From an uncultured Dehalococcoidia bacterium (GTDB lineage: Bacteria; Chloroflexota; Dehalococcoidia; SZUA-161), in NCBI GenBank assembly GCA_964524995.1, contig CAZGDV010000003.1:1029-65028 (forward strand): a DNA stretch of 64,000 nucleotides. The letters are read 5' to 3'. Positions 19,921 through 57,711 of the stretch are shown piece by piece (the first letter of the stretch is position 1; every line of letters begins with the position of its first letter). Below the pieces are notes generated by a model that was not told the origin of the DNA, searched no databases, and was given only the letters and a program-made list of their open reading frames with translations. The position numbers and the translations under genes are program-made.

Positions 19921-22110
19921 CTAGGGTCCGTAGGGGCCAAAGTCCTGCCATGGCCTGTAAAACTCGAGATACGTTGCCCAGCTGCTGCCGGTTGCATCGT
20001 AGCTGGGGTCGCTCTGGGTCGCGACTCCGTGACAAAGGGAACCGCTGCACATGGCGTCTGAAGAGCTGGTCTCAGTGCTGTTTCGCAGCACGGCACCCGT
20101 GCTGTTCGTCTTGGTTGCCCCGATCGACGTAACCATCGGGTATCCCCCTGCGCCTGTGTCCTCGATGACGTAGGAGAACCCGTAGCCGGTCCTTCCCGCA
20201 AGGCTGCCATCCCTGATCATAGCATCGTTGGGCCAACCAGCCTGGTATCCGGCGGCTCCGTGGACGTTGTGACAGGAGGAGCAGGCCGTCATGGAATCGG
20301 TGGAACCCGGGGCCGCGCCGTTTGTGGTATCATCCCAGTCCGAGTCCCAAGTCTGCATGGTGTAGTTCATGATATGGGAAACGTGCTCGTTGATGTCGGC
20401 GCCACTTCCCCAGGCGTAGGAGTAGTTCCGTGGTGGATTGGGGGCAGTCGCCTTGAAGTTCGTGGTTAACGACGCCGGAGTATCATCCAGAACGCTGTTG
20501 GGATCATGACAGGAGTCGAAGCACAGCCTGAACCCGTTGTCCTTCATCGTCTGCGCGTTGTAGCTGAACGTGATGCTGTAGTTGGATGGGATCATAAGGG
20601 GCACTTCGCCGCCGACGTAAGCCAGCCGGTACCCGGCGGCGTAGGCCACACCTGACTCGCTCGGCGAGTAGTATGACGTCTGGAACTCGTATGTCCTCGG
20701 GATGCCATCGATGTGCGTCCCCGTCTCCGTATCGTGGCAGTCCTCGCACTCCACGGATGCGGATCTGCCGTGGCCGGCCGTCCAGAACAGGCTGACGTCC
20801 GGGGCCGATACGCCCGCGATGACCGCAGGGTCATCGTCGTGACAGCCGACGCACCACTGCTCCTTGCCCGCCTGCAAGGGGCTGCCGTACACACCGCTGG
20901 ACCAGTTCGCCTTGGCCCCGATCGTCGGATCGTTCACCCCGTCGTAGGAGCCACCCGGGCTGTGACATGTGTCACAAGCTGCGGTGGTCGCAAGAGGCAG
21001 GCCATCGCTGAACAGCGAGTAGTTATCATCGTCATGGCAATCGGTGCAGTCTAATGGCGTGGATGGGCCCTTGCTGTTCGCAGTCGTGTGAGTGGCGTGG
21101 CTCCCAGATGTGCCGTGGCATGCAGCACAATCGCCGCCTCCCGCCCCCCCGTGGCCTACCCCCTCACCCGTGGGCTGATGGCATTGCGTACACACTTTCC
21201 GATTCTTGGCCGAAAGCAGGCGGCTGTCATAGGCACCACCCGCAGCCGCCATCGGATCGGGCAGACTCACCGAGCCGCTGTACGCCCCCATCGTCGCACT
21301 CGTGCCGTGCGCTACATGGCAGCGCAGACACCCACCGGAGATCTGCGTGTTGTGTCGGTAGCTGAATACCGCGTCACCCGAATGAATATGCCCTTGCCCG
21401 GCCCCAGCTCCATACCTCGTGTGACACTGCGAACACCACTCGTCCAGGTTGTACGGGGTGTAGGTCACATCACGGTAGTACTGTGTCGTGCCGTTACCGG
21501 TGTTGTAGGTTATCTCATATGTCGGCGTGCCCGTCTCGTCCGATACGTCCACGGCCGTGGTATTGCCCTCATCCGCCATACCGTCGGGATTTCCCCTGAG
21601 TATTCGGTAGTTGCCGTTGCCATGCGGATTGTGACAGTCACCGCAGGCCAGGTCCACTGCTATGCCGTAGTCAGGGGTTGCGTTCACCGGACCGCTGCCC
21701 CAAATCGTGCCCGACGTGATCCCGTCGGCGGTGTGGGCCGAGGTGACCAGCCTGCTCGTGATGTTGCCATTGACATCGACATCCATAACGGCGTAATCGA
21801 AGCCGCCGCCCCGGAGCCCGGAGCCCGACGTCCCGTATGTGCTGCCGTCGAGCTCTCCGTTGACGACGTCGGTCTCGGCACCTGTGCCGTCGTGACAGCT
21901 GAAGCAAAACTGGTCCTGAGTGGGGCCTACGGTGAGGAGTTTGGGGGCCTGGCCGGTGTGAGCCCTGTGACAGCCCGCGCATGAGTCCGCCCCCGTCTGG
22001 AAGTTGTCCTTGTCATGCAGGTCGTTGTCAGCAAGCGCTGGAGTCGCTGCTATCAGCATCGCCAGGACGATGACAGCGACCAGGGCATATCTAAGCAAGG
22101 GGATCAACAT
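19921..22110 (-). CDS. multihaem c-type cytochrome, paralog A (hexahaem N-module plus haem-rich C-extension)
   Basis: Signal peptide ending ALA|DNDLHDKDNF. 12 CXXCH plus CFDSCH (CX3CH) and CSGSLCH (CX4CH). The first two sites form a paired-CXXCH arrangement. Confidence 0.9.
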   Translation of the reverse strand: MLIPLLRYALVAVIVLAMLIAATPALADNDLHDKDNFQTGADSCAGCHRAHTGQAPKLLTVGPTQDQFCFSCHDGTGAETDVVNGELDGSTYGTSGSGLRGGGFDYAVMDVDVNGNITSRLVTSAHTADGITSGTIWGSGPVNATPDYGIAVDLACGDCHNPHGNGNYRILRGNPDGMADEGNTTAVDVSDETGTPTYEITYNTGNGTTQYYRDVTYTPYNLDEWCSQCHTRYGAGAGQGHIHSGDAVFSYRHNTQISGGCLRCHVAHGTSATMGAYSGSVSLPDPMAAAGGAYDSRLLSAKNRKVCTQCHQPTGEGVGHGGAGGGDCAACHGTSGSHATHTTANSKGPSTPLDCTDCHDDDNYSLFSDGLPLATTAACDTCHSPGGSYDGVNDPTIGAKANWSSGVYGSPLQAGKEQWCVGCHDDDPAVIAGVSAPDVSLFWTAGHGRSASVECEDCHDTETGTHIDGIPRTYEFQTSYYSPSESGVAYAAGYRLAYVGGEVPLMIPSNYSITFSYNAQTMKDNGFRLCFDSCHDPNSVLDDTPASLTTNFKATAPNPPRNYSYAWGSGADINEHVSHIMNYTMQTWDSDWDDTTNGAAPGSTDSMTACSSCHNVHGAAGYQAGWPNDAMIRDGSLAGRTGYGFSYVIEDTGAGGYPMVTSIGATKTNSTGAVLRNSTETSSSDAMCSGSLCHGVATQSDPSYDATGSSWATYLEFYRPWQDFGPYGP

Positions 22111-22233
22111 GTCATACTATCCCAACCTATACACTAAACGCTGTAGTGTACGTCGATCAAGGGCAGGACTGCGCCTTTCCGCTGGGTAGTGGCCGCATTC
22201 AGCAGGGCGATGAGCAAATGGAGACCTATGCGC

Positions 22234-24924
22234 CTATTCTGCGAGTTCGAGCTTCACGGCGTCGGCACAGATTCGGCCATCGGTCTCATCGCTGAGGGTC
22301 ACGTACCCCGATGTGCCAGCCGAGAAAGGGTAGGTGCCAAGGAGGTTCCACTGTCCCCCGTTCACCTGCTGGTTCACGTCTATCGTAGTCTCACCACCGT
22401 CGTAGTGAATCGTGTAAGGAGCGTCGGTAGCCCTTCCTGTAGCCTGATGCCACCATGCATAGACATCATAGGCCCCCGATTGCGGCAGGTCAGGTGTCCA
22501 GGTGGCTGTGGCGCTGACGGTCGTATTGCCATCATGGCGATAGAAGTCACCATTGAAGGCGTTATCATTCTCGATATAGCTCCAGCCCGTGCCGGTGAAC
22601 AGGGCATCGCGGTCGTCGACGATTGCTCGCGGCACATAGGGCCGGTAGTACTCGAAGGACGCCTGTCTGGGGTTGAACTCCTGGTCCAACTCCTCGAGAT
22701 AGCTATGGCAGTTGAAGCACATCCCACCCACATTGTTGCCGCCGGGGCCGTACTGCCAGCCCATGCGGAAGATCGCACCGTCGCTGGTCTCCCTGGTGGT
22801 GTCGAGAGAGGTCATTGTAGGGGGCGAGGTCTGGCCGTCCCAGATTACGTACGAGAAGGCGAAGCCGAGCCTGAAGTCGTCCTCGCGATCGTAGGTAAGG
22901 CTCCCGTCCCGGATCATCGGCTGGTTCGACGAGCCCAGCGTTCCGGCGACCCCGTGGACGTTGTGACAGGTGGAACAAGTGAACAGTGAGTCGTATCCTT
23001 GACCGAACGTATCTGTGCTGCTATCCCAGTCCGAGTCCCATGTGCGTGCACTTCCAGGGTGATGCGACATCTCGACCAGGTGATAGTAGTGCTCATTGGT
23101 CTGCGCCGGGTCGCCCTCCCCCCAACCATAGGACCACTTGAATGGCGGATTGGGCGGCCGCTCGCGCTTGAAGTACGTGTCGTAGTTGTCCTCCAGCATG
23201 AAAGTTGTGTAATGACAGCCCGAGTCGAAGCACAACCCGGCCCCGTACTTCTTGTATACCATGTCGTCGGCTATCTCCGTATCCGAGGAGCCCACGAACG
23301 TGGTGCCCCAGCTCATCGGTATCATGAGGGGAACACTGCCGTAGACTGATCTCAGCCTGTACCCTGCCTGATAGTCGACGCCGGTGCTCGAAGGCGTGTG
23401 CTGTGATATCTCCGTGAATGCGTACGTTCTGTCGTCTCCATCGATGTGCGTGCCGGTGGTCGTATCATGGCAGTCCTCACAGGCGAGTACGCCGGACCGG
23501 CCGTGGCCGCTCATCCAGAACAGGCTTACGTCGGGCGCGCTCACACCCGCGATCACCGCAGGCTCATCGTCGTGACAGCCCACGCACCACTGCTCCTTGC
23601 CCGTAGCCAACTGGCCGTCGTAGGCCCCGACATCCCATACGGACTTCGCTCCCAGGTAAGGATCATCCACACCATCGTAGGTGCCGCCTGGACTGTGACA
23701 CGCATCACAGACAGCCGTGCTGTCCAGGCTCTCCCCGTCCGCAAACAGAGGATACTGATCCGTGTCGTGGCAATCCGCACAATCCAGGGGAGTCGCAGGG
23801 CCCCTGGTGTTGACTGTTGTATGGGTCGCGTGACTGCCCGAGGTGCCGTGGCATTCCGAGCAGTCGGCACCTGAGCTGTGGCCCACTACCTTGCCGTCCA
23901 CGACATGGCACTCGGCACAGACCTTGCGACTGTTGACCGACAGCAACCGGCTGTCGGTCGTGCCCCCACCCGGCGTGCCGTCCGGAAGAGGCACCGTCCC
24001 ACTGTGGGGCCCCATCGTCGCCGTTGTGCCATGCGCAACGTGGCATCGGAGGCAGCCACCGGTCAGGCTGCTGGTGTTGTGGCGGAACGTGTACACTGCG
24101 TCGCCGGACGGCGTCTGAATCTGGCCGGTGCCTGCATGATATCTCGAATGGCACTGGGAGCACCAATCGTCTAGGTTGTATGGCACGTACGATACATCGC
24201 GATAATACAGGCTGCTACCGTTGCCCGTGTTGTACGATATCTCATAGGTCGGGGTATCTAGTTCGTCCGGCACGTCTACGGCTGTCGAGTTACCCTCGTC
24301 CAGCATACCGTCCGGGTTGCCACGGAGCACCCTGTAGTTACCGTTGCCGTGCGGGTTGTGGCAGTCGCCGCATTCCAGCGTCAGCATGTTCCCGTAGTAC
24401 GGTGTGCTGCTCGTCACGCCGCCGCCCCAGGCAGTCGAAATGGAGTTGTCGACGTTGTGGGAGGAGGTTACATTGCCGACGGAAGGGGTGCCAGATAGCC
24501 CAGAGTCCATAACGGCGTACTGGAAACCGCCCCCGCGCAGACCGGCACCGAGCGCGCCGTAGGTCATCCCATCCAACTCGCCGTTCATGACGTCGGTCTC
24601 GGCACCGCTGCCGTCATGGCACGTGTAGCAGAAGTTCGCCTGGCTGGGTCCCGAGAGGAGGAGACTGGCGGCCTGACCGGTGTGCGCCCTGTGGCACTTC
24701 GCGCAAGCGTCAGCCTCACCCACGAAGTTGTCCTTATCGTGCACGTCGTTATCAGCCAAGGCCGGAACGGCAGACACGACGAGAACGAGAAACGTGCAGA
24801 GGAAGACAAGTACTCTGGCCAACGGATACCACCATGAACAGTGTCTAATCCTATAGGGTAAACGCGAGGCGGTCACTTGGCAAACGCGACACTTCACTGA
24901 ACCTACCGTTATTGAAGACGCCAA
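22234..24924 (-). CDS. multihaem c-type cytochrome, paralog B, with C-terminal golvesin-like binding domain
   Basis: Collinear with paralog A. 13 CXXCH plus CFDSGCH. The C-terminal ~130 aa carry the YDVYAWW...APYTIHYDGG...VNQQVNGGQWNLLGTY...ADAVKL pattern. The true start is probably the in-frame TTG at 24822, just before the signal peptide. Confidence 0.85.
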   Translation of the reverse strand: MASSITVGSVKCRVCQVTASRLPYRIRHCSWWYPLARVLVFLCTFLVLVVSAVPALADNDVHDKDNFVGEADACAKCHRAHTGQAASLLLSGPSQANFCYTCHDGSGAETDVMNGELDGMTYGALGAGLRGGGFQYAVMDSGLSGTPSVGNVTSSHNVDNSISTAWGGGVTSSTPYYGNMLTLECGDCHNPHGNGNYRVLRGNPDGMLDEGNSTAVDVPDELDTPTYEISYNTGNGSSLYYRDVSYVPYNLDDWCSQCHSRYHAGTGQIQTPSGDAVYTFRHNTSSLTGGCLRCHVAHGTTATMGPHSGTVPLPDGTPGGGTTDSRLLSVNSRKVCAECHVVDGKVVGHSSGADCSECHGTSGSHATHTTVNTRGPATPLDCADCHDTDQYPLFADGESLDSTAVCDACHSPGGTYDGVDDPYLGAKSVWDVGAYDGQLATGKEQWCVGCHDDEPAVIAGVSAPDVSLFWMSGHGRSGVLACEDCHDTTTGTHIDGDDRTYAFTEISQHTPSSTGVDYQAGYRLRSVYGSVPLMIPMSWGTTFVGSSDTEIADDMVYKKYGAGLCFDSGCHYTTFMLEDNYDTYFKRERPPNPPFKWSYGWGEGDPAQTNEHYYHLVEMSHHPGSARTWDSDWDSSTDTFGQGYDSLFTCSTCHNVHGVAGTLGSSNQPMIRDGSLTYDREDDFRLGFAFSYVIWDGQTSPPTMTSLDTTRETSDGAIFRMGWQYGPGGNNVGGMCFNCHSYLEELDQEFNPRQASFEYYRPYVPRAIVDDRDALFTGTGWSYIENDNAFNGDFYRHDGNTTVSATATWTPDLPQSGAYDVYAWWHQATGRATDAPYTIHYDGGETTIDVNQQVNGGQWNLLGTYPFSAGTSGYVTLSDETDGRICADAVKLELAE

Positions 24925-24991: not shown

Positions 24992-26266
24992 CTAGGACAA
25001 CGCCCTGTCGATGGCTTGGATCGTAGCGTCGATGTCAGCCTCGGTATGCGCCAGTGAGATGAACGCGGCCTCGAACTGGGATGGCGGCCAGTATATGCCC
25101 TGGTCCAGCAAACTCCTGTGGAACGCTGCGAACCGTTCCGTGTCAGCCGACTTGGCCGACTCGTAATCGGTAGGTGCGTCCTCACGGAAGAACACCGTCA
25201 GGAGCGATCCGATCCGCGAGGTTGTGGCGATCACACCGGACTTGGAGATGGCAGCGAGGATGCCCTGCTCGAGCTGCTTGCCCCTGTCGTCGAGGGTCTT
25301 GTACACACCGCGGTCGCTGAGCAACCTCAGCGTCTCGATACCGGCCGTCATAGCCAGCGGGTTGCCGGACAGGGTGCCGGCTTGGTAGACAGGGCCAAGC
25401 GGGGCCATCAGAGCCATTATGTCCTCGCGCCCGCCATATGCGCCCACAGGCAGGCCACCGCCGATGATCTTACCCAGGCAGGTCAGGTCCGGCATGACGC
25501 CGAGGAGCTCCTGCGAGCCGCCACGGGCGACCCGGAACCCGGTTATGACCTCGTCAAAGACCAGCAGAGCACCCGCAGCGCTGGCGATGTCGCGCAGGCC
25601 CTCCAGGAACCCTTCCTTGGGAGGCACGACCCCCATGTTTGCCACGATAGGCTCGACGATGATGGCGGCTATGTCCGTGTGCTCATCGAACAAGGCGCGA
25701 ACAGAGGAGAGGTCGTTGTAGGTCGCGATCAGTGTGTTCTGCGCATATCCAGCCGGGACACCAGGGCTGTCCGGCGTCCCCAGCGTCGTCGCCCCTGAGC
25801 CAGCTTTCGCCAGAAGGCCGTCGGAGTGCCCGTGATAGCATCCCGCGAACTTCACGATCTTGTCCCTCTTGGTGTAGGCGCGCGCCAGCCGCAGGGCGCT
25901 CATCGTCGCCTCCGTGCCGGAGTTGACGAAACGCACCATTTCGATGGACGGAACAGCCTCGCACACCATCCGGGCAAGAACCGTCTCCAGCTCCGTGGGA
26001 GCGCCGTAGCTCGTGCCCTTCTCGGCGGCCGCCTTGACGGCGTCGACCACCTGCGGGTGGGCATGTCCGAGTATCAGCGGCCCCCAGGAGCATACGTAGT
26101 CGATGTACTCGTCGCCGTCGACACTGCGCAGGGTCGACCCGGAGGCACTCGCAACGAATACCGGGGTCCCGCCGACCGCCTTGAAGGCGCGCACGGGACT
26201 GTCAACACCCCCCGGCAGGTACTTCTGGGCTTCATCGTAGAGTGCTTGAGATCGGTCGGTGTTCAT
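24992..26266 (-). CDS. hemL: glutamate-1-semialdehyde 2,1-aminomutase
   Basis: [10 protein letters not shown] motif, class-III aminotransferase. Start at MNTDRS (26266) gives an ATGA overlap with the upstream gene. Confidence 0.95.
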
Positions 26267-27789
26267 CCCACCTCGCCATTCCTGTAATATCGCTCGATAG
26301 CCTCTACCAGGCCTGGTATCGTGTGTTGGGTCGCGACGACCTGGGGAGTCAACCCCAGTTCCCGGGCCGTCGCAGCGGTTCGCGGGCCTATGCACGCGAT
26401 TGTGGCCATCTTCACCGCGTTCCAGTCATCGGCAGCAATCGCGCGCAGATTGGTTACGGTCGAGGAGCTTGTGAAGGTGATCAGGTCGATTACCCCGTCG
26501 GATAGCAGCTTCCGGGCTGCAGCCACATCTTCATCGGGGAGGACGGTGTGATATGCTGTCACATGCCTCGGCTCGGCCCCCAGCCCAGCCAGACCCTCCA
26601 CGAGATCCATAGGTGCGATGTCCGCCCTGAGCAGCAGGACACGCGAGCCTGCTATACCCGCTTCGGCAAGGCTCTGGAGAATGCCTTCGCTCGTGTACTC
26701 CTCGGGTGTCATGTCAGGATGGAGACCGCGCTCTTCGAGTGCTGCGGCGGTGGCAGGGCCTATCGCGCAAATACGGGTCCCGGCAAACGAGCGGGCGTCT
26801 CGCGAGAGGGTCAGCACTCGCTGCCACACCACCTCCACGCCGTTCGCACTCGTGAATACCACCCAGTCGTAGTCGTGTAGGGTGAGTATGGCACGATCCA
26901 ACTCGGCGGTGTCTGCCAGGTCTTTTACCGCTATGGTGGGCAGTTCCACGGCTTCCGCCCCTCGTTCGACGAGCATTCCGGCGAGGACGCTTGCCTGGGC
27001 TCTCGATCTGGTTACGAGAATGCGCTTCCCGAAGAGAGGCCGTTTCTCGAACCACGCCAGATGCTCGCGAAGGTTGACCACCTCACCAACCACGATCACG
27101 ACCGGCGGCTCGAATCCGGCCTCTTCGGCCCTGGCCGCTATGTCTTGCAGCGTGCCCGTCAGAGTCTGTTGCTGGAGGGTCGTTCCGTGGCGGATCAGGG
27201 CCACGGGAGTCGCCGGAGGGCGGCCGCATTCTACCAGCTTCTCCGCAATCTTGGGCAGATTGCCCATGCCCATCAGGAAGATCAGTGTGTCAACGCCGGT
27301 GGCGAGATTCGCCCAGTTGATGCTGGACTCCGGCTTACCCGGGTCCTCGTGGCCGGTGACAACCGCGAAAGACGATGCAATACCCCTGTGCGTAACGGGA
27401 ATACCAGCGTACGCCGGGACACCGATGGCTGACGATATGCCCGGCACGATCTCGAATGGAATGCTCTCCGCGGCCAGTGCCTCCGCCTCCTCCCCCCCGC
27501 GCCCCAGGACCAGCGGGTCTGCTCCCTTCAGTCTAACGACGGTCTTTCCCTCATGCGCCTTGTCCACCAGAAGCTGATTGATCTCGTGCTGCTCCATGGC
27601 GTGGGCCTTGAACGACTTGCCGGCGTATATGATCTCGGCGGTCGGAGGGGCCTCCCCCAGCAGACGTTCGTCGATCAGGTGATCATAAACAATGACATCG
27701 GCGCGGCGTATGCAGTCGAGCCCCTTCACGGTGATGAGGCCTACATCGCCAGGGCCTGCGCCGATCAGGTAGACCAAGGCCTCGCTCAT
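26263..27789 (-). CDS. cobA-hemD: fused uroporphyrinogen-III C-methyltransferase / uroporphyrinogen-III synthase
   Basis: The N-terminal half is SUMT ([25 protein letters not shown]). The C-terminal ~250 aa are HemD-like. Confidence 0.85.
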
Positions 27790-28712
27790 TGCCGCATCCT
27801 CTCCACCAGAAGGCTCGCGCCCATGTCCAGCATACGGGTCGCCAACTCTTTACCCGTCTCCTCACCATACTGGACTTCCCGATCACAGCCGGCGCGCAGG
27901 ATAGTCTTTCCGTCGGGATCAGCCACCATCCCCTGCAGGTACATCCTGCCCTCACTGACAGTCCCGTTGGCCGCGATCGGAGCGCGACAGCCCCCACCCA
28001 GGGCTCTGAGGAACTCGCGCTCAGCCACCACGCACTGCCAGGTGTGATCGTGGTTCAGCGCCGATAGGAGATCGATGATGTCACTGTCCGACTCCCTTAC
28101 CTCGATGCCAAGCGCCCCCTGTCCGACCGCAGGTGTGAAGGCCTCATGAGGCAGATACTCGGCTATCCTGTCCACCATTCCCAGTCGGATGAGGGCCGCG
28201 GCTGCGAGCACGATGCAGTCGAACTCACCCGAGGCCACCTTGCGAAGCCTGGTATCGATGTTCCCCCTGAGCCCCAGCACTTCGAGATCGCTCCGCTGGG
28301 CGCGCAGCTGTACCGCCCGCCTCTGGCTCCCTGTACCTACCTTGGCACCGGGAGGCAGCTCCGCGAGCCCGCCGCAGCGCGATACCAGCACGTCGCTCGG
28401 GTCGATCCTCTCCGGAACGCATGAGAGGCAGAGACCATCGGTGAGGCTCGTCGGCATGTCCTTCGCGCTATGCACAGCCATGTCAATTCTTTCATCCGTG
28501 AGCGCCTGCTCGAGTTCACGGACAAATACGCCCTCCCCGCCCAGCACATCGAGTGGAATCTGACGGTGACGATCACCCGTTGTAGCGATCTCGACAAGGT
28601 CGAACCCAATGTCCGGGTGAATCGACGGGAGGCTCGCGATGACGCTGTGGCACTGCTGCAGTGCGAGCTTGCTGCGCCGGGTACCGACTCTGATCCGCCC
28701 TTTGGACTTCAC
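27786..28712 (-). CDS. hemC: hydroxymethylbilane synthase (porphobilinogen deaminase)
   Basis: IRVGTRRSKLALQQ N-terminus and LRGNIDTRLRK motif. Confidence 0.95.
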   Translation of the reverse strand: MKSKGRIRVGTRRSKLALQQCHSVIASLPSIHPDIGFDLVEIATTGDRHRQIPLDVLGGEGVFVRELEQALTDERIDMAVHSAKDMPTSLTDGLCLSCVPERIDPSDVLVSRCGGLAELPPGAKVGTGSQRRAVQLRAQRSDLEVLGLRGNIDTRLRKVASGEFDCIVLAAAALIRLGMVDRIAEYLPHEAFTPAVGQGALGIEVRESDSDIIDLLSALNHDHTWQCVVAEREFLRALGGGCRAPIAANGTVSEGRMYLQGMVADPDGKTILRAGCDREVQYGEETGKELATRMLDMGASLLVERMRQ

Positions 28713-31641: not shown

Positions 31642-31642
31642 A

Positions 31643-35782: not shown

Positions 35783-36370
35783 TCCTGATAACCTGAGTAT
35801 CCATACCCTCTGCCCTGCGCGGTGCGATGTTGTCTCGAGATGAGACAACGCCCTCAGTCACAGATTGTCGTCTGCCTGGAGTCCCCGAACAATCTTACCT
35901 GCGTACCTTTTCCCTCTTACCTTCGTCACCTCGGGCATGACCAGGTGAGAACACGGCTGTTGCGGGCAACGCTCCGATAAGGGGGCCGTGGGGGGCTCGA
36001 TCGGGCAGTACTTTCAGCCCTTGTGCATACCAGTCAAAGCGGCTAAACTAGAATAGGTACGAATGTACCCCCTGGCAGAGTCGATGACGGCGGGCCTACT
36101 CGTGTCGGCGAGACGGGCGGTGCTAGCCAAGCATTGTGATACTTGCGGAGGGGCGAAGGTACTGGTGACAATACGGTGCGTTCCTCGGCGGCTTGAGCGC
36201 CGAGATAACGCTTGTGATTATCGGGGGTTCAGGGCGGCTCCAGCTCACGACCTAGCTGTCTGCCACATCGAGTACGGCTGCGTGGTACAGAGGCGATTGG
36301 TCAGCACCTTCCCGTCACAGTCAAGGCGGTGGGACTGCGGGCAGCAGCCGAATGCCGGAGGAACGTCGCC

Positions 36371-36754: not shown

Positions 36755-36756
36755 GC

Positions 36757-40350: not shown

Positions 40351-40375
40351 TCGCGCGGGAGGTGGCGGCCAGGCC

Positions 40376-41778: not shown

Positions 41779-41793
41779 GCCGCGAGGCCGGTC

Positions 41794-49125: not shown

Positions 49126-50941
49126 AGACCCTCCCGGCGCTGTCCAAGGCTATCCCATTGGGGTAGTTGAACTCACCGGCCCCCATACCTTGCCCACCGA
49201 AGGTGAAGAGCCGTTGAAGGCTCTCCCCGGCCTGAAAAACGATCACACTGTGCCCGAAAACATCGACGACGTGCAGCAGGTCTCGCTCGTCTACGGCCAG
49301 TCCCCTCGGCAAGCCGGCGTCTATCGCTCTCGGGTTACTGCCGTCCTGGTCGAATACCTTGAGGGCAAAGTTGTTGCTGTCCGCAACGTAGATGTTGCCC
49401 AGACTATCGACCGCAATTCCATTCGGGAAAGAGAACTCATCGACGCCCTCGCCCTTCTTTCCAAACTCTAGTCTAACATGTCCGGCGTAATCGAACACCA
49501 TCACGCGGTGCTGGCCGCTGGTCAACTCGGTGATGTACAGGTCGTCCCAGTTGCTGGTGCGATCGTCGAACGTCATTGCCATTGGGGACCAGATATCACC
49601 GAACTCATCCGGAGACAGCCTCTCCACATGAGCACCGCTGTAGTCATAAACGTCGATGCAGGACCGCGTGCGATCGGAGACAAATATCCTGCCGGTAGTC
49701 CTATGTACACCAACATACACCGGCGATCGCGACGCGACGTTCTTGGAGTCCGTAGGCACGAGGGTGGCCAAGTGTGTCCCATCCCTGTCGAAGACGTGCA
49801 CTCCGCGCTCGCCTCCGCTCTCTGCAACATATATGAACTCGCCGTCGGGATGTACGGCCACGCCCAGTGGCTTGTCCACACCGTATATCGAGAACTGGTA
49901 CTCCGGCGCGTCAACAGGCCCCCGACCTTCTCCTGAATCCTCTGATTCCATGGCGGGCACAGCTGGGATGGCCAGCACTAACGACTTCACCACGGCGAAG
50001 TCAACTGTCGCCAGTACATCGTCGATGACCACGGAGCCGAGATGGCCGACATCCGCAGGCTCACGCTGGGACAGGCCGATACCCGATGGCAAAAGCGCCT
50101 CGGAGATGCGATACGACGCCGATCCCGTATCGGGGTCCGAATTCAGCAACTCCGTTCCGCTCACGTCAACTACCTCATGCCCGGAGTCGGCTGCTGCCCT
50201 CAAGAGGTCCGTTGCCACCTTTCGTAGTTCATCCGCTAGGCCGGAAGGCTCTCCGTTCGTTATGTCCTGCGGGAGAGGTGGTACCACCAGTGACGTACCA
50301 CCGGAAATCGGGACCATTGCTACGACGAGATGACCCTCGGTATCGACTGCCAGGCCCGATACGATCGTAGAGCCATCGCCGTCGCGCCAGTTTATGTACT
50401 CGCCCGTGTCGGCGTCGGTGGCCAGCACGGTGTCACGACCGTGAATCGCCCCCGTCGGCGTCCTTACAACGAATGTCGTTACCTCTTGTCCTATCTGGGA
50501 AGTCGCGCGTCCTGACACGAGTCTTGTCTCGACCCTCACCCGATCCGCGCCGATGATCTTCGATATCTTCTGCGACTGGACCAACTGCAGTTGGCCGGAA
50601 CCCTGGAGCAGAGTTCTGCTCCCATCGAAATAGTGGATAATCGCAGCGCTTCCCTCGCCCACCCATAGCCAATCTCCGTCATGGAGCTCCATCCCGGTGC
50701 TCGCCGCGATCCATGTGCTCTCACTCTCCGCCGTCTGCACCCGCACGTCCCCGGACCTGGCTTCAAGTAGGCCGACTTCGCTGGACGTGCTCTCGTACCC
50801 GAACAGCACCGCCAGCAGGGCCACAATGCAGGCCAGGAAGATGACGACGACTACTAACACGCGGCGCTTTCGCTCGCGTGAATCACGAGTGTCGGAAGGA
50901 GGATGGTACATACGATCGCGCAAGCCTGGTATTCGTGGCAT
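49079..50941 (-). CDS. membrane-anchored FecR-domain / NHL-repeat beta-propeller protein
   Basis: N-terminal TM helix, a FecR-like segment (GDVRVQTAE...LHDGDWLWVGEGSAAIIHYFDGSRTLL), and C-terminal NHL-type repeats (e.g. FSFPNGIAVDSLGNIYVADSNN, FNYPNGIALDSAGRVYVTDRENNRVQVW). Confidence 0.75.
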   Translation of the reverse strand: MPRIPGLRDRMYHPPSDTRDSRERKRRVLVVVVIFLACIVALLAVLFGYESTSSEVGLLEARSGDVRVQTAESESTWIAASTGMELHDGDWLWVGEGSAAIIHYFDGSRTLLQGSGQLQLVQSQKISKIIGADRVRVETRLVSGRATSQIGQEVTTFVVRTPTGAIHGRDTVLATDADTGEYINWRDGDGSTIVSGLAVDTEGHLVVAMVPISGGTSLVVPPLPQDITNGEPSGLADELRKVATDLLRAAADSGHEVVDVSGTELLNSDPDTGSASYRISEALLPSGIGLSQREPADVGHLGSVVIDDVLATVDFAVVKSLVLAIPAVPAMESEDSGEGRGPVDAPEYQFSIYGVDKPLGVAVHPDGEFIYVAESGGERGVHVFDRDGTHLATLVPTDSKNVASRSPVYVGVHRTTGRIFVSDRTRSCIDVYDYSGAHVERLSPDEFGDIWSPMAMTFDDRTSNWDDLYITELTSGQHRVMVFDYAGHVRLEFGKKGEGVDEFSFPNGIAVDSLGNIYVADSNNFALKVFDQDGSNPRAIDAGLPRGLAVDERDLLHVVDVFGHSVIVFQAGESLQRLFTFGGQGMGAGEFNYPNGIALDSAGRVYVTDRENNRVQVWQY

Positions 50942-50944: not shown

Positions 50945-51853
50945 CTACTGCTCCCTCAACTGGTTGAGACGAGCGCCCGCAAGAGTGTTGTCCGGGTCCA
51001 GCTCCAGGACCGCCTGGTACGCCTCGATGGCATCCTGGGTCTGGCCAACCTTCTCGTAGGTCATGGCGAGTCCGAGATGCGCCTCGGCGAACTGCGGGCC
51101 ACCCGCTACGGCTGCCCCCAGGTTATCGAGAGCCTGTTCGTATCTCTCGCTGCAGTAGTCGACCATACCGGTCGCATAGGCGGCGCCGGTCGTGTTGCCG
51201 ACCTCCTGGTAACAGTGGGCAAGCTCTTCATATGCTTCGGTGAAGGTCGGGACGAAGCGTATGGCCTCCAGCAACCACTCAATCGCATCGTTGCACTGGC
51301 CCATGTCGCTGTACGCCACTCCCAGAAAATATCTCGAGTCAGCATCGGTACTCATCGCGACGGACGTAGCTCTCAGAGGTTCGATCGCCTTCTCGGGCTC
51401 ACCCAGAGCAATGTAGATACGCCCCAGATCGTATTGCGCGCGCTGGAGCTGTTTGTTCAACCCCCTCATGGGGTTGTCCTCGTTCAACTCGACGACTTTC
51501 AGGTAGGGCTCGAGCGCATCTTCGTACTTCTCCTGGTCCATGTAGACAGCGCCGAGAATCATGTAGGCCATCTCGTATTCGTCGTTCTGCGCGAGCAGGA
51601 ACTCGGCCTGATCGATAGCCTCATCGTAGGCGCCAGCCTCGATGTAGTAAGCTGCAAGTTGGACTCTCAGGCTACTGTTGAACGGGCTCTCTTCCAGCAG
51701 CTTCTCGATCCGCTCAATCTCCCTTTCCACCATTGACTTGTCGGAGGTCGACGTGTCACGCAGCCCGACAATCAAGCCGACCACCAGCCCGACTATCGCC
51801 ACCAGGACGAAAGCTATAAGGAACCTTCTACTACGTCTTGTGAGGAAGTCCAA
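50945..51853 (-). CDS. membrane-anchored TPR-repeat protein
   Basis: N-terminal TM helix, then multiple 34-aa TPR-like repeats (AYYIEAGAYDEAI, LGRIYIALGEPEKAIE, LAMTYEKVGQTQDAIEAYQAVLELDPDN). TTG start after GAGAGG. Confidence 0.75.
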   Translation of the reverse strand: MDFLTRRSRRFLIAFVLVAIVGLVVGLIVGLRDTSTSDKSMVEREIERIEKLLEESPFNSSLRVQLAAYYIEAGAYDEAIDQAEFLLAQNDEYEMAYMILGAVYMDQEKYEDALEPYLKVVELNEDNPMRGLNKQLQRAQYDLGRIYIALGEPEKAIEPLRATSVAMSTDADSRYFLGVAYSDMGQCNDAIEWLLEAIRFVPTFTEAYEELAHCYQEVGNTTGAAYATGMVDYCSERYEQALDNLGAAVAGGPQFAEAHLGLAMTYEKVGQTQDAIEAYQAVLELDPDNTLAGARLNQLREQ

Positions 51854-51989: not shown

Positions 51990-52021
51990 CCAAAGATGTC
52001 TCCTATCGCTAGCAATCCATC

Positions 52022-53410
52022 CTACTGGGTGAACTCGTGGCAGTCCACGCAGTTCTCGCGGTTCTTGAGCTTGTGCGTGATAGCCGGCACTCCACCCTCG
52101 CTCACCTCATGACACGCATCACAGAGGTTATCACCATAGCCTGTGTGGCTGCTGGGGAGGGCACCTATCTGCCCAGCGGTGTGGCACCGATTGCACGGGC
52201 TCTTGTCCAACTCATGTGGCAACTCAGGCGGAAGTGTGCGCGTCACGTCATGACACACCAGACATGTGTTGTCAAGACGCCCCGTGTGTGTAACCGGCAA
52301 TTGCACTAGTGCCGTCGAGTGACACTCGGAGCATGTCTCGTGTGCCTGGACCTTGTGCATGATGGCTGGGGGCAGCCCCTCCATCTCCTCATGACAGACA
52401 CCACACGTAGGATTGGCGCGGCCGTCATGGCTCGATGGCAGCGCCACTAGAGCTCCCTTGGAATGGCAGGCAATGCACGCACCCTTACCTTCGGTTGTGT
52501 GGGCTATCACGGGCGGCAGGTCGCCTGCCGACGCCGCGTAGTGACAGGCTTGGCATGTGCCGCTCGCCCTGCCTTCGTGGGAGGCAGGTAGAGCAACCAA
52601 GGCGTTGGCAGAATGACAGGATGTGCAGTCGCGGTTCTTGCTATGCGACTCCGTCGGCGCGAATCCGGCCGACACGTCATGGCAGCCCAAACACGTCTTG
52701 TCGGCGCGACCCTCGTGCGTCGCTGGCAATGCGACCATAGCACTACCTGAGTGACACGATGAGCACGGAGTCGCTACCTTCAGCCGGTGGGCATCGGGCG
52801 GCAGGTCCGTGGTCTGCACATGACACATAGTGCATGTGTTAGTCGTCCGGGGCGAGTCGCCTTGGTGACTGACCGGCAGAGCCACAAGGGCAGTGCTGGA
52901 GTGGCAGTTGTCGCACTTGGTTCGGCCCTCATAGGCGTGCGCTCCCGCAGGGGGGCCCCCGGGATAGAGGACGTGGCACCCTAGGCAGCTGTCGTTGGTC
53001 CGCCCTGCGTGCGTTATCTTCACTGGCCAGACACCATACAGGTCGTGACAAGCCAAGCAGTCACTTCTGCCTTCGGCTGTGTGGGCCAAGTAAGGGCCCA
53101 CACTTGTTGCCGGAGGAGTCGCTGTGGGCACTGTCGTTGGGGTAGGTTGGGCCGGGGTTGGGGAAACCGTCGGCTCTGCAGGCGACTCAGTGGGTGGGAC
53201 CGGGGTCGCTGTCGGCGATCCCGTGACCGGTGGTGAGGGCAGGTCGCTAGAGCCCCCCGGGTTCTCCTCCCCACAGCCAACCAAGGGGGTTACGATCAGG
53301 GCCGTTAGCGCCAGGATGAGAAGCAACCTGTATAAAGGCCTGCTTCCCCGCAAGGCAGAGTACGGGCGGGGGTGGTGCGAGTGAGGTCCGGTGCTCTGTC
53401 TGCTCGTCAT
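52022..53410 (-). CDS. 15-haem tandem-repeat lipoprotein cytochrome c
   Basis: Lipobox LVGCGE, a Pro/Thr-rich linker, then 15 CXXCH arranged as seven dihaem repeats (CxxCH-x3-4-ALVALPxSHxGR-x3-5-CxxCH...PP..H) plus a terminal haem. Confidence 0.9.
   Translation of the reverse strand: MTSRQSTGPHSHHPRPYSALRGSRPLYRLLLILALTALIVTPLVGCGEENPGGSSDLPSPPVTGSPTATPVPPTESPAEPTVSPTPAQPTPTTVPTATPPATSVGPYLAHTAEGRSDCLACHDLYGVWPVKITHAGRTNDSCLGCHVLYPGGPPAGAHAYEGRTKCDNCHSSTALVALPVSHQGDSPRTTNTCTMCHVQTTDLPPDAHRLKVATPCSSCHSGSAMVALPATHEGRADKTCLGCHDVSAGFAPTESHSKNRDCTSCHSANALVALPASHEGRASGTCQACHYAASAGDLPPVIAHTTEGKGACIACHSKGALVALPSSHDGRANPTCGVCHEEMEGLPPAIMHKVQAHETCSECHSTALVQLPVTHTGRLDNTCLVCHDVTRTLPPELPHELDKSPCNRCHTAGQIGALPSSHTGYGDNLCDACHEVSEGGVPAITHKLKNRENCVDCHEFTQ
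52025..53098 (-). repeat. in-gene tandem repeat: seven ~45-50-codon dihaem units
   Basis: Recurrent peptide blocks, e.g. CSSCHSGSAMVALPATHEGRADKTCLGCH, CTSCHSANALVALPASHEGRASGTCQACH, CIACHSKGALVALPSSHDGRANPTCGVCH. Confidence 0.8.
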
Positions 53411-53678: not shown

Positions 53679-53713
53679 GGTAACAATTTCACTTGAGTTG
53701 ACATGCTGTCACC

Positions 53714-56431
53714 CTAGGGCACGGTAGTGAAGGACGTCTCAATTGAGAAGTCAGACCACTCTCCGTGATCATCCTGGTGTCGCAAATGCCAATAGTAGGT
53801 TGTGCTACTTGCCAACTCCATGCCTACGGTGTGGCTGGTAAGATCACCCGTCGGCCCCGTGTCGTATAGTGGAGAAGAGTAGTCACCTTGCACGGTAGTG
53901 ACCTGCCACTGCGATGCCTGATGTGTGTCACCGGCGTCCGGGTCTACGAAGCCTGAGGAAACGAGCGTAAGTATCAAGGGTACGTCACCAGCGCCGTCAC
54001 CAGGCGAGGTGTTGGTCGGGCTTGTTGGCGGCGCGTTGTAGGTGGCGAATGACCACGAGTCGAAACTGAGAGTGTTGGGTACGTACGCCATGTCATCAAC
54101 TGTGACAGAGACAACCATCGTCTCGCCGTTGGGGAAGTCCAGTGCCGGGTCGACTGCGGCATTGTAGGATGTGGAGTTTCCAGTGTGTGAGACCTCGGGG
54201 CTGGTGCTCCCGTATATCTGCACATAGCCCGGGCCGGTGATCTCAATCGTGAATGAACTCCAGTCTACACCTGTCTCCGTGTCGCTGATCGAGAAAGTGA
54301 GATTGCCATGAACGGGTATATCTATCGACCCGGAACCAGGACTGAGGTCGTTGATCTCCGGCAACGTTGTGTCCTCATGAACGGTGAACTGCCAAGCGTA
54401 CGGCTCAAGTGAGTTCGGGAGCGGAGCCAGGTCCTGTACGCCTACCACCACGGTTATTGTCTCGCCGTAGCCGAAGTCGACTCGTGGATCGATCAACACG
54501 TCGTAGGCGGGAGGGCCTCCGACCTGAGAGACAACGTCCGTATCGCTAGCGGTGTAGGTCTGGCTATAGCCGCGATCTCCCGTCAGCTGTACGGTGAACG
54601 TGCTCCAGCTGACACCCATTTCGCTGTCAGCCAACAAGAGGGTAAGATCGACGTCAAGGGGCTGGCCCGACGCTCCGTTGGTCGGGCTCACGTTTGACAT
54701 CGTCGGCGGCTGAAGGTCTGTGAGGCCGATTATCGGGGAGCGATAGTAGGTTATCTCCCCGGGTCCCATGTGACAGCCATCACACACCTTACTGTCGGCA
54801 ATGCTGCCCGCCCCGTGCCCGCCGAGCGGAGGCATATCCCCATAGTAGCTGTCACTGAGCAAGGTGGTTGCGTTCCCATAGACATCGCTCCACTTGAAGT
54901 CCAATGCCGGGACTTTGTCGGCCGAGCCTGGGGAGCTGATGAGTTCGCCGTGCCGGATCATCTGGGGTGTCGGGGAACCATGCACGTTGTGACAGGCTGT
55001 ACAGCTGATCCGCGAGTCGGTGCTCATGTCCCAGTCCGAATCCCACTGACCGGGGTTCGCACTGAGGTGTCTCGAGTGGCTGCTGATTCCTTCACCTTCA
55101 TCCCGGAAGTTGGTGTTGTATGGAGACGTGCTGTCGAGTATTCCGTTGTATTTGTGGCATTCGAAGCAGAGTTCGAACTTGTCTTCGCCCCAGCCGGCAC
55201 CCGCCGACAACGGTATGGTCATCGAGTACAGGAGTCGATAGCTGCTGTCATAGTCCGTCGCCCCAGCCACGTACGTTCTGGGATCGCCGTCGATATGCGC
55301 GCCGTCCGCGACGTGACAGTCGGTGCACTCGACCAGACCTCTCTTGCCGTGACCGGTCACATCGTACCCGTATGACGATCCGTCACCCACCACAGACGGG
55401 GCCTGGACGTTTCGTATGGTGGAGTTGCCGTCGTCGTGGCAACCCCGGCACGAGATGCGGGCGCCCGTCAGCCAGCTGGCTTTAGCTTCGGCTACTCCGT
55501 CATGTGCGCCGCCCCCGCTGTGACACGGGTCGCAGGTGGTGGTGTTGCCCAAGTCCTGTCCGTCATTGAAAGTCACGGTGCCGTCGTCATGGCCATCGCC
55601 CACCGACACGTCTGAGTGACAAGAGCCGCAGCTAGTGATGTAGGGGCCATACTCTTCTGTGTAGTGAGTGGCATGAGCGCCATCCCGGTTGGGGGCCTGA
55701 CTTCCGTTAGGGGGCAGCCCATGGCATCCGCTGCCGCCAATGGAGCAAGTCATGAACCCGTCATCGGTCGACGATGCGTTATCTACATCGTGGGGGTGAC
55801 AGGCCGTGCAGTCTGTCGCGCGAAGGTCACCCGAATATGCAGGTGCTGGTTCATGAACGCCGCCGGCATGAACGCTCATCGGATACCCGGAGTTGTCAGT
55901 GATGTTGATGTGGCAGGTGACACAGATATCATCGGTGTCCGTGTCATCGTCCGAATCCTCGTCAAACGAGTCGACGCCGGTCGTTGCCGAGTAGACAACG
56001 GCATAGCCACCTATGCTCTCCCAGATTTGACACAGGTTGTCCTGGGAGGAATGCGGGTCGTGACAAGCCACGCAGTCCAGCGTGAAGGGGAATTCCTGTG
56101 GACTGAAGTGCAACACCGGTGACTCCGCGTTGGCGTTTGAATGGGTGGACGATACCTTCGAAGAACCTGCTCCATCGTGACAGGTGAGGCAAAGAGCGTT
56201 GTTGGATGTTTCCGAGATGGCGGTGCTGCCCTTGGCGCTGTGTACACGATGGCACCTGGCACACGCATCGGCCTCCGGCAGGATGTCGTCGTGAGGATTC
56301 TGTGCTCCAACGCTGTAGACCGCGGAAAGGGCCAACACGATGCACACAACGCCCAGACTGGCAGCGAAGCGACACCGCTGTGGTGTCACCAGTGCCCGTG
56401 TTCTGCCAATACCACCGGTCCAGAGACTCAT
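53714..56431 (-). CDS. multihaem c-type cytochrome, divergent paralog E, with C-terminal Ig-like/FN3-like domain array
   Basis: Signal peptide. 12 CXXCH plus CSIGGSGCH. The middle region is collinear with the C-extensions of paralogs A and B. The last ~330 aa form two ~112-aa Ig-like repeats plus a third beta-domain (YYWHLRHQDDHGEWSDFS). Confidence 0.85.
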   Translation of the reverse strand: MSLWTGGIGRTRALVTPQRCRFAASLGVVCIVLALSAVYSVGAQNPHDDILPEADACARCHRVHSAKGSTAISETSNNALCLTCHDGAGSSKVSSTHSNANAESPVLHFSPQEFPFTLDCVACHDPHSSQDNLCQIWESIGGYAVVYSATTGVDSFDEDSDDDTDTDDICVTCHINITDNSGYPMSVHAGGVHEPAPAYSGDLRATDCTACHPHDVDNASSTDDGFMTCSIGGSGCHGLPPNGSQAPNRDGAHATHYTEEYGPYITSCGSCHSDVSVGDGHDDGTVTFNDGQDLGNTTTCDPCHSGGGAHDGVAEAKASWLTGARISCRGCHDDGNSTIRNVQAPSVVGDGSSYGYDVTGHGKRGLVECTDCHVADGAHIDGDPRTYVAGATDYDSSYRLLYSMTIPLSAGAGWGEDKFELCFECHKYNGILDSTSPYNTNFRDEGEGISSHSRHLSANPGQWDSDWDMSTDSRISCTACHNVHGSPTPQMIRHGELISSPGSADKVPALDFKWSDVYGNATTLLSDSYYGDMPPLGGHGAGSIADSKVCDGCHMGPGEITYYRSPIIGLTDLQPPTMSNVSPTNGASGQPLDVDLTLLLADSEMGVSWSTFTVQLTGDRGYSQTYTASDTDVVSQVGGPPAYDVLIDPRVDFGYGETITVVVGVQDLAPLPNSLEPYAWQFTVHEDTTLPEINDLSPGSGSIDIPVHGNLTFSISDTETGVDWSSFTIEITGPGYVQIYGSTSPEVSHTGNSTSYNAAVDPALDFPNGETMVVSVTVDDMAYVPNTLSFDSWSFATYNAPPTSPTNTSPGDGAGDVPLILTLVSSGFVDPDAGDTHQASQWQVTTVQGDYSSPLYDTGPTGDLTSHTVGMELASSTTYYWHLRHQDDHGEWSDFSIETSFTTVP

Positions 56432-56514
56432 CTGCTGGGTATCACGCCGTACCGTGGGACATATGAAGAGGGCAGGGCTCCGTCAGATGCCGAGCCCCGC
56501 CCCATAACTCGTCG

Positions 56515-57711
56515 TCAATCATTGGTTAGGTTGCTGCCATCGTGGCAGACGGTACAGACGGCCCGGTTGTCCAACGACAGCAGGCGGCTTTCGAGCGATG
56601 GTGTCGCCCCCTGCGACGTGCCGTCTGGGTAGGAGACCGCTCCCGAGTATGACGCCATTGTGGCCGCAGTGCCGTGCGCAACGTGACACGCAAGACAACC
56701 CTCGAGATGACCAGGGGTAGGCTTGTCTTCACCGTGGCATATATTGCAGTCTTCCCGATGGTTATAGGGGCCGTGACACTGCCCACAGTCGACGTTGTAC
56801 AGGGGCTCGTTCCAGTGTCCGTGGGTATGAGCATAGCCGCTGCCGGGACCACCCTGCAGCGCGAACTTGTCCTCATGACACTTGATGCACCCGTTCTCGT
56901 AGGTCGGCGATCCTTTGACCCAATGGCGAAAGGCGAACACGACGTCAGAGGAATCGCTACCTCCTGATCCCGCTCCACACTCATACCGTGTGTGACACGC
57001 CCCGCACCAGTCCACGAGAGTCAGCAGCGTGTCCCCATCATACCCCAGCGGAGTCCAGTTGCCTCCGGGTAGCTCGTCCCACACCTGTCGGTAGTTGTCG
57101 GCATTGTATCCTATTTCGTAGATAACGGGGTACTGATCAGGCACGTCCACCGGGAGAGACGTCCCCTCATCTTCCATACCGTCCGGATTGCCCCTCAGAA
57201 TACGGTAGTTGCCATTCCCATGCGGGTTGTGACAGTCGCCACAAGCCAGCTCTACCGTGACGCCATAATCCTCAATGGTGGAGTTGATCGGGCCGCTGCC
57301 CCAGATTGTCCCGCTTGTAGCCCCGCTCGCCGAGTGAATGGAGCTGACCACAGCCGTGGTGATATTGCCATCGTGGTCTGTGTCCATCGTGGCGTTCTCG
57401 AAGCCGCCACCCCTCAGGCCGGCACCAGTAGAGCCGTATGATGTGCCATCGAGCTCACCGTCGACGACATCTGTCTCCGCGCCGCTGCCGTCATGGCATG
57501 TGAAGCAGAAGTCGTCCTGGTTGGGACCTGACGTCAAGAGGTTGGGAGCCAGTGCGGTGTGGGCCCTGTGACAGCCGGCGCAGGAGTCAGCGCCGACTGC
57601 GAAGTTGTCCTGGTCGTGGAGGTCGTTGTCGGCTATTGCTATGCCGCCTGCGCTGGAAATCGCCAGCGCGAGGAGTAGCGTGGCAACCAATACCCCTCGC
57701 CATCGTGTCAT
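56515..57711 (-). CDS. nonahaem c-type cytochrome, paralog F (core module with a 3-haem insertion)
   Basis: Signal peptide ending IAIA|DNDLHDQDNF. Nine CXXCH, including the extra CIKCH, CGQCH and CNICH between core sites 4 and 5. Confidence 0.9.
   Translation of the reverse strand: MTRWRGVLVATLLLALAISSAGGIAIADNDLHDQDNFAVGADSCAGCHRAHTALAPNLLTSGPNQDDFCFTCHDGSGAETDVVDGELDGTSYGSTGAGLRGGGFENATMDTDHDGNITTAVVSSIHSASGATSGTIWGSGPINSTIEDYGVTVELACGDCHNPHGNGNYRILRGNPDGMEDEGTSLPVDVPDQYPVIYEIGYNADNYRQVWDELPGGNWTPLGYDGDTLLTLVDWCGACHTRYECGAGSGGSDSSDVVFAFRHWVKGSPTYENGCIKCHEDKFALQGGPGSGYAHTHGHWNEPLYNVDCGQCHGPYNHREDCNICHGEDKPTPGHLEGCLACHVAHGTAATMASYSGAVSYPDGTSQGATPSLESRLLSLDNRAVCTVCHDGSNLTND

Follow-up and report, generated by a model that had tools for sequence, protein, structure and literature searches.

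Multihaem cytochromes of a Dehalococcoidia electron-transfer island carry a hexahaem module predicted to be a compact homologue of OmcS

A cluster of multihaem cytochrome genes

How electrons pass through the thick wall of single-membrane bacteria is poorly understood, and to our knowledge the cytochrome nanowires with a documented structure come from just a few Desulfuromonadia and two archaea. Here we describe a set of multihaem c-type cytochrome genes from an uncultured Dehalococcoidia bacterium (Chloroflexota; SZUA-161; GenBank assembly GCA_964524995.1), located on 64,000 nucleotides of contig CAZGDV010000003.1 (positions 1,029 to 65,028, forward strand). This whole stretch is referred to as the window, and coordinates are counted from its first letter. 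The window encodes approximately 87 c-haem sites distributed over eight cytochromes and is a dedicated electron-transfer island. An earlier note on this DNA described six of the open reading frames (ORFs) as one paralogous family, collinear over a shared N-terminal module of about 300 amino acids (aa) with six haems. All six ORFs were confirmed, and they are listed here as A to F with, for A to D, scores on a family hidden Markov model (HMM) that was built from 35 family members.

19921-22110, (-) strand: A, 729 aa; 14 haem sites (12 CxxCH, one CxxxCH and one CxxxxCH); signal peptide at residues 1-27, OmcS-like hexahaem module at ~21172-22029 and 8-haem extension at 19924-21153; 422.9 bits over residues 9-313
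22234-24924, (-) strand: B; 14 haem sites (13 CxxCH and one CxxxxCH); hexahaem module at ~23899-24822, 8-haem extension at 22630-23886 and Golvesin_C domain at 22246-22623 (E=1.5e-35), which forms the end of the protein; 402 bits
34847-35782, (-) strand: C, 311 aa; bare hexahaem module with five CxxCH and a CxxxCH as sixth site; 394 bits
42932-43957, (+) strand: D, 341 aa; bare hexahaem module with five CxxCH and a C-x5-CH as sixth site (VCTDPTSCH); 403 bits
56515-57711, (-) strand: E, 398 aa; nine CxxCH; hexahaem module with a 3-haem insertion at ~56698-56913 (CxxCH at 275, 309 and 322), between the YRH histidine and haem 5
53714-56431, (-) strand: F, 905 aa; 13 haem sites (12 CxxCH and one C-x7-CH); 5-haem N-terminal part at 55787-56431 that opens with an OmcS-like two-haem arm, 8-haem extension at 54737-55789 and immunoglobulin (Ig)-like domains at 53717-54736

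Genes A to E encode one collinear hexahaem module of ~300 aa, which follows a Sec-type signal peptide ending ALA/DND. All of the blocks that had been listed for the family are present in their alignment, namely the paired CxxCH, LRGGGF, CGDCHNPHGNGNYRILRG, WCxQCHTRY, CLxCHVAHGT and SRLL..VC..CH. The five modules are 50-67% identical to one another over the module columns and match nearly the whole profile with 394-423 bits, E as two collinear pieces of 327 and 72.5 bits, whereas two unrelated multihaem ORFs from the window have negative scores, -8 bits for 17180-18277 and -5 bits for 52022-53410. These identities and scores indicate that the similarity of A to E reaches well outside the CxxCH motifs, into conserved blocks between them, and is not due to chance. 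The sixth gene is different. F scores 43.9 bits, over profile positions 7-78 only, which hold the signal peptide and the first haem pair, and neither LRGGGF nor the fifth-haem block was found when it was aligned with A to E. As judged from its sequence, F is not a member of the module family; what it has in common with A to E is limited to the first two-haem arm and, with A and B, the extension, leaving five members where six had been proposed.

The 8-haem extension, which is ~410 aa long in A and B, is common to A, B and F over ~400 aligned columns. Its identity to the copy in A is 55% for B and 41% for F, and the blocks GSHATH, CHSPGG.YDGV, WDSDWD, CHNVHG, MIRDG and YYRP recur in all three, so that a haem-rich extension first noticed in two genes is in fact carried by three. 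Solved structures offer it a local NrfB-like match only (E=0.0018), hhalign gives it a probability of 65% against an OmcS profile, and no counterpart was found in 74 relative loci. The remaining architecture was described correctly from the outset: C and D are bare modules, E alone has the 3-haem insertion, B ends in the golvesin-like domain, and F carries an Ig-like domain (Big_5, E=5.6e-7). The idea of a common, presumably conductive core that has been elaborated in modular fashion, with an 8-haem extension, a golvesin-like domain and a 3-haem insertion, stands for the five members.

Five of the six haem sites in the module are CxxCH. The sixth is also CxxCH in A, B and E, but CxxxCH in C and C-x5-CH in D. 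These odd spacings are kept within orthologue groups, as VCTDP[TD][SA]CH in the D type and C-x3-CH in the C type (P0002, P0009, P0013, P0014, P0040), and because they recur in orthologues from other assemblies they are not errors. Like E, several relatives hold extra haems inserted ahead of haem 5. The best orthologues in other assemblies are 82% (A), 73% (D), 69% (E) and 64% (C) identical, and each of these four proteins is nearer to its outside orthologue than to any paralogue in the window, B being the exception with A as its nearest relative. The duplications are therefore older than this organism. A 311-aa protein identical to C is found in public collections. For B, the true start is probably the TTG at 24822 (MARVLVF...ALA/DND) rather than 24924, since the shorter reading gives a normal signal peptide and a protein of 862 aa, the same length as orthologue P0121.

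Relationship of the hexahaem module to OmcS

The earlier note had named a match of the module to a characterised family as something that would refute its view. At the superfamily level such a family exists, since sequence comparison identifies the module as a predicted compact, remote homologue of OmcS of Geobacter, in effect a "mini-OmcS". A search of the Protein Data Bank (PDB) with the module profile matched OmcS (6ef8/6nef) at E=2.7e-5 in one collinear stretch (profile 51-262 against OmcS 32-336), which spans haem-free blocks such as YRIL and EWC..CHT. When the module profile was aligned by hhalign with an OmcS-family profile made from 23 collected members, the probability was 99.5-99.6% (E=5e-24). 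It was still 99.1% with the signal peptide left out and 97.1% (E=5e-11) for the C-terminal half alone (YRIL...EWCxxCHT), compared with 6% and 15% for two unrelated window cytochromes that served as controls. In cross-scoring, the module HMM gives OmcS-family proteins as much as 55 bits and the OmcS HMM gives module proteins as much as 41 bits, and proteins from other phyla score well on both, with module/OmcS values such as 77/140, 74/143, 75/64, 69/72 and 154/58 bits, indicating that the two families are joined by intermediates.

The haem ligands extend the parallel. All 12 axial ligands in the OmcS filament are histidines. Each chain supplies 11 of its own, the ligand still needed at haem 5 is donated by the adjoining subunit, and the haems are stacked in the order of their motifs (PMC6584659). 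In a joint alignment of 18 module and 11 OmcS-family sequences all six haem-motif columns coincide, and the distal histidines of D and OmcS pair as H32/H2, H51/H16, H131/H110, H170/H147 and H281/H335. The sixth distal histidine is in both families part of a [YL]RH shortly past haem 4, offset only by the alignment. Each family has exactly twelve conserved histidines for its six haems, from which all-histidine ligation is predicted. We take the ligand that OmcS donates to be His16, three residues past the first CxxCH, with His51 of D as its equivalent. A, B, D, E and F all have this CxxCHxxH histidine, as do at least 90% of the 132 sequences aligned.

We also modelled D with AlphaFold2. A first run on 35 sequences was too poor to use, with a predicted local distance difference test score (pLDDT) of 53, whereas an alignment of 132 sequences gave a pLDDT of 84.4 and a predicted template modelling score of 0.83. 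The mature part of this model is ~64% coil and ~36% secondary structure; for OmcS, OmcE and OmcZ, secondary structure of ~20% has been reported. The core (residues 61-300) is modelled at pLDDT 80-97, the N-terminal arm (residues 28-60, with H32, haem 1 and H51) at only 55-63.

Two results count against the overall reading. D used as a single sequence in phmmer found nothing relevant in the PDB, OmcS being detected by the profile only, and a Foldseek search of the PDB with the D model had a best E of 4.9. That search also left unmatched the cytochromes that are detectable by sequence, and for a coil-rich model lacking its haems the null probably reflects a limit of the method rather than evidence against homology. 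It could still be argued that the resemblance is convergent, or a product of CxxCH-rich composition, and that the module is an independent family: identity to OmcS is ~25%, Foldseek offers no support, and the profile picks up MtrA as well, by way of repeated paired-CXXCH matches. Against this, the match is collinear over the whole length and takes in the haem-free GG.F, the HN/S block, YRIL, EWC..CHT and the C-terminal R..C..CH, with the same order of all 12 histidines. Given in addition the low negative controls, the intermediates that score on both HMMs and a gene for an NHL-repeat protein next to both loci (below), we consider convergence very unlikely.

Distribution of the family and its gene neighbourhood

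The note had proposed running such an HMM against public genomes, and the family proves to be large. The profile recovers 3,706 clusters at 50% identity with E<=0.001, mainly from Chloroflexota, Actinomycetota, Deinococcus and Bacillota, of which 1,533 remain at E<=1e-10 and 558 at E<=1e-30. Close relatives in species-representative genomes belong to these same groups, the Chloroflexota among them being Dehalococcoidia, Anaerolineae, Chloroflexia and Limnocylindria. Bacillota carriers include cultured Neobacillus, Mesobacillus and Bacillus species, in which the proteins are annotated merely as "cytochrome c3 family protein", a label that masks the relationship to OmcS; a search seeded with Bacillota members had only Bacillaceae among the best 120 matches listed. 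Forms that resemble OmcS more closely were found in Acidobacteriota, in Krumholzibacteriia and in proteobacterial metagenome-assembled genomes (MAGs). The architectures of the wider family comprise bare modules, modules with inserted haems, fusions to an N-terminal beta-domain, modules with other haem-rich tails, and modules followed by an 8-haem extension of the A/B type with or without a golvesin-like domain.

Existing domain models describe these proteins only in part. Paired_CXXCH_1, Cytochrome_C7 and Cytochrom_c3_2 of Pfam score above their curated cut-offs, but cover stretches of just 35-80 residues around haem motifs and not the ~300-aa module. In the window proteins the Pfam MtrC domain does not rise above its cut-off, and the NCBIfam model decahem_SO reaches 29-52 bits against a cut-off of 192 bits, with other NCBIfam multihaem models lower still. 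Matches in the PDB to MtrC/OmcA, DmsE/MtrA, NrfB and OcwA-type families are local, and none is module-wide. One might ask whether the proteins are multihaem redox enzymes, for example reductases of nitrite, hydroxylamine or sulfite, rather than conduits, since weak sub-threshold matches to NrfB, NrfH and octahaem families were seen. These matches fall far below the curated cut-offs, and the proteins lack both a CxxCK motif and any motif for a lysine or tyrosine ligand. With six conserved distal histidines for six haems no open catalytic site is predicted, and an enzymatic role is extremely unlikely.

Relatives of the module lie in a conserved gene arrangement. In 26 of 31 close loci the order is a TPR gene, an NHL beta-propeller gene, one to four modules and a large cytochrome; the five exceptions include several short contigs, and an NHL gene was found in 48 of the 74 loci overall. 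The large cytochrome of this cassette has a segment that matches the first two-haem arm of the module, always with CxxCHxxH. In loci L001-L042 it usually consists of a haem-free N-terminal part of 250-1300 aa and then a C-terminal unit of ~7 haems headed by the CxxCHxxH arm, whereas in F the arm is N-terminal. Neobacillus vireti, N. niacini, N. drentensis and Bacillus sp. OK048 (loci L027, L036, L037, L039 and L042) have two or three tandem hexahaem relatives that score 80-89 bits on the module HMM. TPR and NHL genes immediately precede them, and a 7-haem cytochrome of ~600 aa comes after.

The window holds a permuted version of the cassette on its (-) strand, made up of E, F and the following genes:

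52022-53410, (-) strand: 15-haem lipoprotein cytochrome, in the same direction as E and F
50945-51853, (-) strand: membrane-anchored TPR protein; a homologue lies beside the module in 26 of 31 close loci
49079-50941, (-) strand: membrane-anchored NHL-repeat beta-propeller protein; present in 26 of 31 close loci
47680-49125, (-) strand: final gene of the block; 481-aa protein in which a duplicated exported domain is combined with a membrane helix and a zinc ribbon on the cytoplasmic side

No homologue of the 481-aa protein was found among the related loci. The 15-haem lipoprotein has the lipobox LVGC, a Pro/Thr-rich linker of ~50 aa and about seven tandem di-haem repeats (CxxCH..ALVALPxSHxGR..CxxCH), and from this layout it could be a tethered rod able to span the wall.

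A related arrangement is seen in Geobacter. At locus L077 an NHL-repeat gene (8809-9756) lies directly upstream of omcS, and its product matches the NHL protein of the window at E=9e-10 and 8.4e-11 in two comparisons. Because NHL repeats form a common family this adjacency is supportive and not decisive. No TPR gene was found upstream of the Geobacter NHL gene; the ~1 kb that precedes it (7727-8808) has no convincing ORF, is bounded on its other side by a sigma-54-type response regulator gene and is presumably regulatory. OscB (spermine-synthase-like), OscD (a YncE-type propeller), OscE and OscF have been proposed as companions for the secretion and morphology of OmcS in Geobacter. With these four as queries, matches were confined to loci from double-membrane phyla. 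Identification of the NHL protein of the window with OscD was considered and rejected, the similarity being weak (E=1e-3).

The surrounding island

Genes for cytochrome maturation, haem supply, a candidate electron entry point and regulation make up the other features of the island.

16970-19843, (+) strand: candidate quinol-oxidising entry module, with a 10/11-haem cytochrome, a 4Fe-4S protein exported by the twin-arginine translocation route and a cytochrome b561-type membrane protein
24992-33896, (-) strand: sirohaem-dependent (Ahb) haem biosynthesis operon, with HemL, HemD/CobA, HemC, HemA, a NirDL-like/sirohaem synthase fusion and two radical-SAM enzymes
36329-42498, (+) strand: System I cytochrome c maturation (Ccm), with CcmE, CcmF, two small or anchored proteins, CcmA, CcmB and CcmC
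44075-47634, (-) strand: LuxR-type response regulator and HAMP/GAF/HisKA_3 histidine kinase, beside D

Both the Ccm and the Ahb gene sets lie between module paralogues. In the Ahb operon the fusion gene (30001-32082, (-) strand) encodes a 693-aa protein with two NirDL/AsnC-like units and a sirohaem-synthase-like NAD-binding domain, and is followed by the two radical-SAM enzymes and a MerR-type regulator. Within the Ccm cluster, the product of 38740-39195 (+) has a C-terminal zinc ribbon, as has that of 47680-49125 (-), and the membrane-anchored product of 39196-40350 (+) is without one; the two Ccm-cluster proteins have a cytoplasmic "FERG...Y.E.R" motif in common. The outer sensor domain of the histidine kinase contains one CSSCH haem motif, and from their sequences the kinase and its LuxR-type partner are a possible redox regulator of the island.

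The candidate entry module begins at 16970 with a 66-codon ORF that has a lipoprotein-type signal (..VFGAVG/C) and one CLQCH and ends at a TGA (17168-17170). It continues in frame into the 10-haem ORF at 17180-18277, which itself lacks a signal peptide. The TGA could mean that the gene is interrupted or the stop recoded, or it could stem from a sequencing error. Selenocysteine was considered for it and found to be unsupported, as nothing sets the RNA fold downstream apart (z=-1.85).

Predicted function and assembly

Taken together, A to E are likely to be secreted, paralogous c-type cytochromes of the OmcS superfamily, whose six bis-histidine haems would most likely form one linear chain and serve as an extracellular electron conduit. 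We infer that they lie outside the membrane, that they take part in extracellular electron transfer and which way the electrons run, the best-supported course being from a membrane quinol oxidase out through the cell envelope. Every protein would be exported by means of its Sec signal peptide, loaded by the adjacent Ccm system with haem from the adjacent Ahb operon, and placed in or beyond the cell wall, where it could relay electrons between the quinol-oxidising module in the membrane (16970-19843) and extracellular acceptors or donors. In A and B the conduit would be lengthened by eight further haems. The golvesin-like domain of B is a probable glycan-binding anchor, the Ig-like domains of F may also serve as anchors, and the TPR and NHL propeller partners most likely assist in maturing or organising the cytochromes outside the membrane.

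Electrons might instead be taken up through the island, from Fe(II), a cathode or a partner cell, with no reduction of external acceptors. All-histidine multihaem chains are reversible, cytochrome clusters with NHL genes occur in electron-uptake organisms (e.g., Uet of Tenderia and Gallionella), and the window has no feature that settles which way electrons move. Among the annotated neighbours, however, neither a Cyc2- or Mto-type oxidase nor a carbon-fixation gene was seen, and discussion of OmcS and CwcA, the relatives that have been characterised, treats them as outward conduits. An uptake role is, in our view, unlikely.

A further question is whether the modules polymerise. By analogy with OmcS, units might join head to tail, with the CxxCHxxH histidine of one ligating haem 5 of the next. 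Such assembly is possible given the OmcS-type set of ligands, the lack of a spare histidine for haem 5 and the poorly packed arm of the monomer model, and we put it forward tentatively. Several observations weigh against it, and in part against the conduit reading as a whole. Paralogue C has no CxxCHxxH histidine (CALCHRVL). CxxCHxxH is general to paired-CXXCH domains, and its presence is no proof of ligation between subunits. The C-terminal fusions of A and B and the N-terminal fusions elsewhere in the family might obstruct head-to-tail stacking. OscB, OscD, OscE and OscF had no phmmer match in the window or in loci L001-L030; their absence from single-membrane loci fits a system that needs no outer-membrane crossing.

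Several of these observations suit a different arrangement, in which the proteins are OmcS homologues that do not polymerise and act as monomers or in a fixed hetero-complex with the F-type large cytochrome, held by the NHL and TPR proteins, with the CxxCHxxH histidine closing haem 5 within its own chain. The lack of a donor histidine in C, the fusions common at either end and the missing Osc assembly genes all speak for this account, as does the constant make-up of the cassette over loci, which is what a complex would show; furthermore, among the four Geobacter paralogues only OmcS is known as a wire (10.1101/2025.11.06.686851). Harder to fit are the ligand set, which is exactly that of OmcS with no spare histidine, haem 5 of OmcS having no ligand from its own core, and the N-terminal arm, which is the sole low-confidence part of the D monomer model. 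Recombinant CwcA of Thermincola, moreover, was obtained only in insoluble form, which its authors found to agree with a polymeric homology model (PMC7911101). A non-polymeric state is a credible alternative, to which we would give somewhat less than an even chance.

Going further, the cassette of TPR, NHL, hexahaem and large cytochrome genes can be imagined as a minimal wire system for cells without an outer membrane, either ancestral or parallel to that of OmcS. Modules would then polymerise across the wall through donated histidines, F-type or large cytochromes, which have the donor arm alone, would cap, nucleate or branch the wire, donor-less C-type modules would end it, and nanowires would be common in Chloroflexota, Actinomycetota and even cultured Bacillaceae. 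As a whole this scheme is speculative and improbable. If the compact family does work like OmcS, wire-type cytochromes would be widespread, with thousands of sequence clusters, and a simple conserved cassette would flag the trait in metagenomes. The cultured carriers, such as Neobacillus species, make the idea directly testable.

Comparison with known systems

The closest parallel is with OmcS itself. The two share Sec export, the haem-free blocks, a mostly coil structure, tandem arrays of paralogues (OmcT, OscC/GSU2501 and OmcJ in Geobacter sulfurreducens) and an adjoining NHL-repeat gene. They differ, apart from the ~25% identity, in length, as mature OmcS has 407 aa and the module core ~290-310 aa; the core is shorter because it is without two long insertions of OmcS, after haem 3 and before haem 5. 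The second of these is haem-free in OmcS, whereas E holds its 3-haem insertion at the same place. The module also differs in its mainly single-membrane hosts, in its frequent fusions to haem, Ig-like and golvesin-like domains and in its atypical sixth haem sites (C-x3-CH and C-x5-CH). Its constant partner is a TPR gene, where the OmcS system has the Osc companions. OmcE of Geobacter (PDB 7TFS), an insulated wire with one inter-subunit histidine, gave a weak profile match in paired-haem regions (E=3e-4), but it has four haems and the match is local, with no collinear relation to the module over its whole length.

NHL beta-propeller genes likewise stand beside extracellular multihaem cytochromes in the Uet clusters of Tenderia and Gallionella, in clusters of Desulfovibrio ferrophilus and at Gmet_0556. 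All these clusters have other cytochromes, porins, peptidyl-prolyl isomerases and double-membrane hosts. Such adjacency is a known theme, and our literature search returned no description of a TPR-NHL cassette. OmcS homologues have been reported from Geobacter, Geoalkalibacter and Anaeromyxobacter and from one Coriobacteriales genome; the search found nothing that ties OmcS-like proteins to Chloroflexota.

In functional terms the nearest precedent is CwcA of Thermincola (Tfer_0075/TherJR_1122), a hexahaem, OmcS-like protein of a Gram-positive host with 18% identity to OmcS, modelled as a polymer that crosses the peptidoglycan with haem 5 ligated by the neighbouring subunit (PMC7911101). Compared by description only, it embodies the same functional idea as is proposed here for the window modules. 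The published account of CwcA concerns one gene in a single genus, and four cwcA copies are reported for one sediment MAG; the breadth of the family, the TPR/NHL cassette and the modular fusions lie outside that account. The concept of a wall-spanning OmcS-like wire has thus already been published for Thermincola CwcA, and the module described here is a large, little-described branch of the OmcS type with conserved helper genes of its own.

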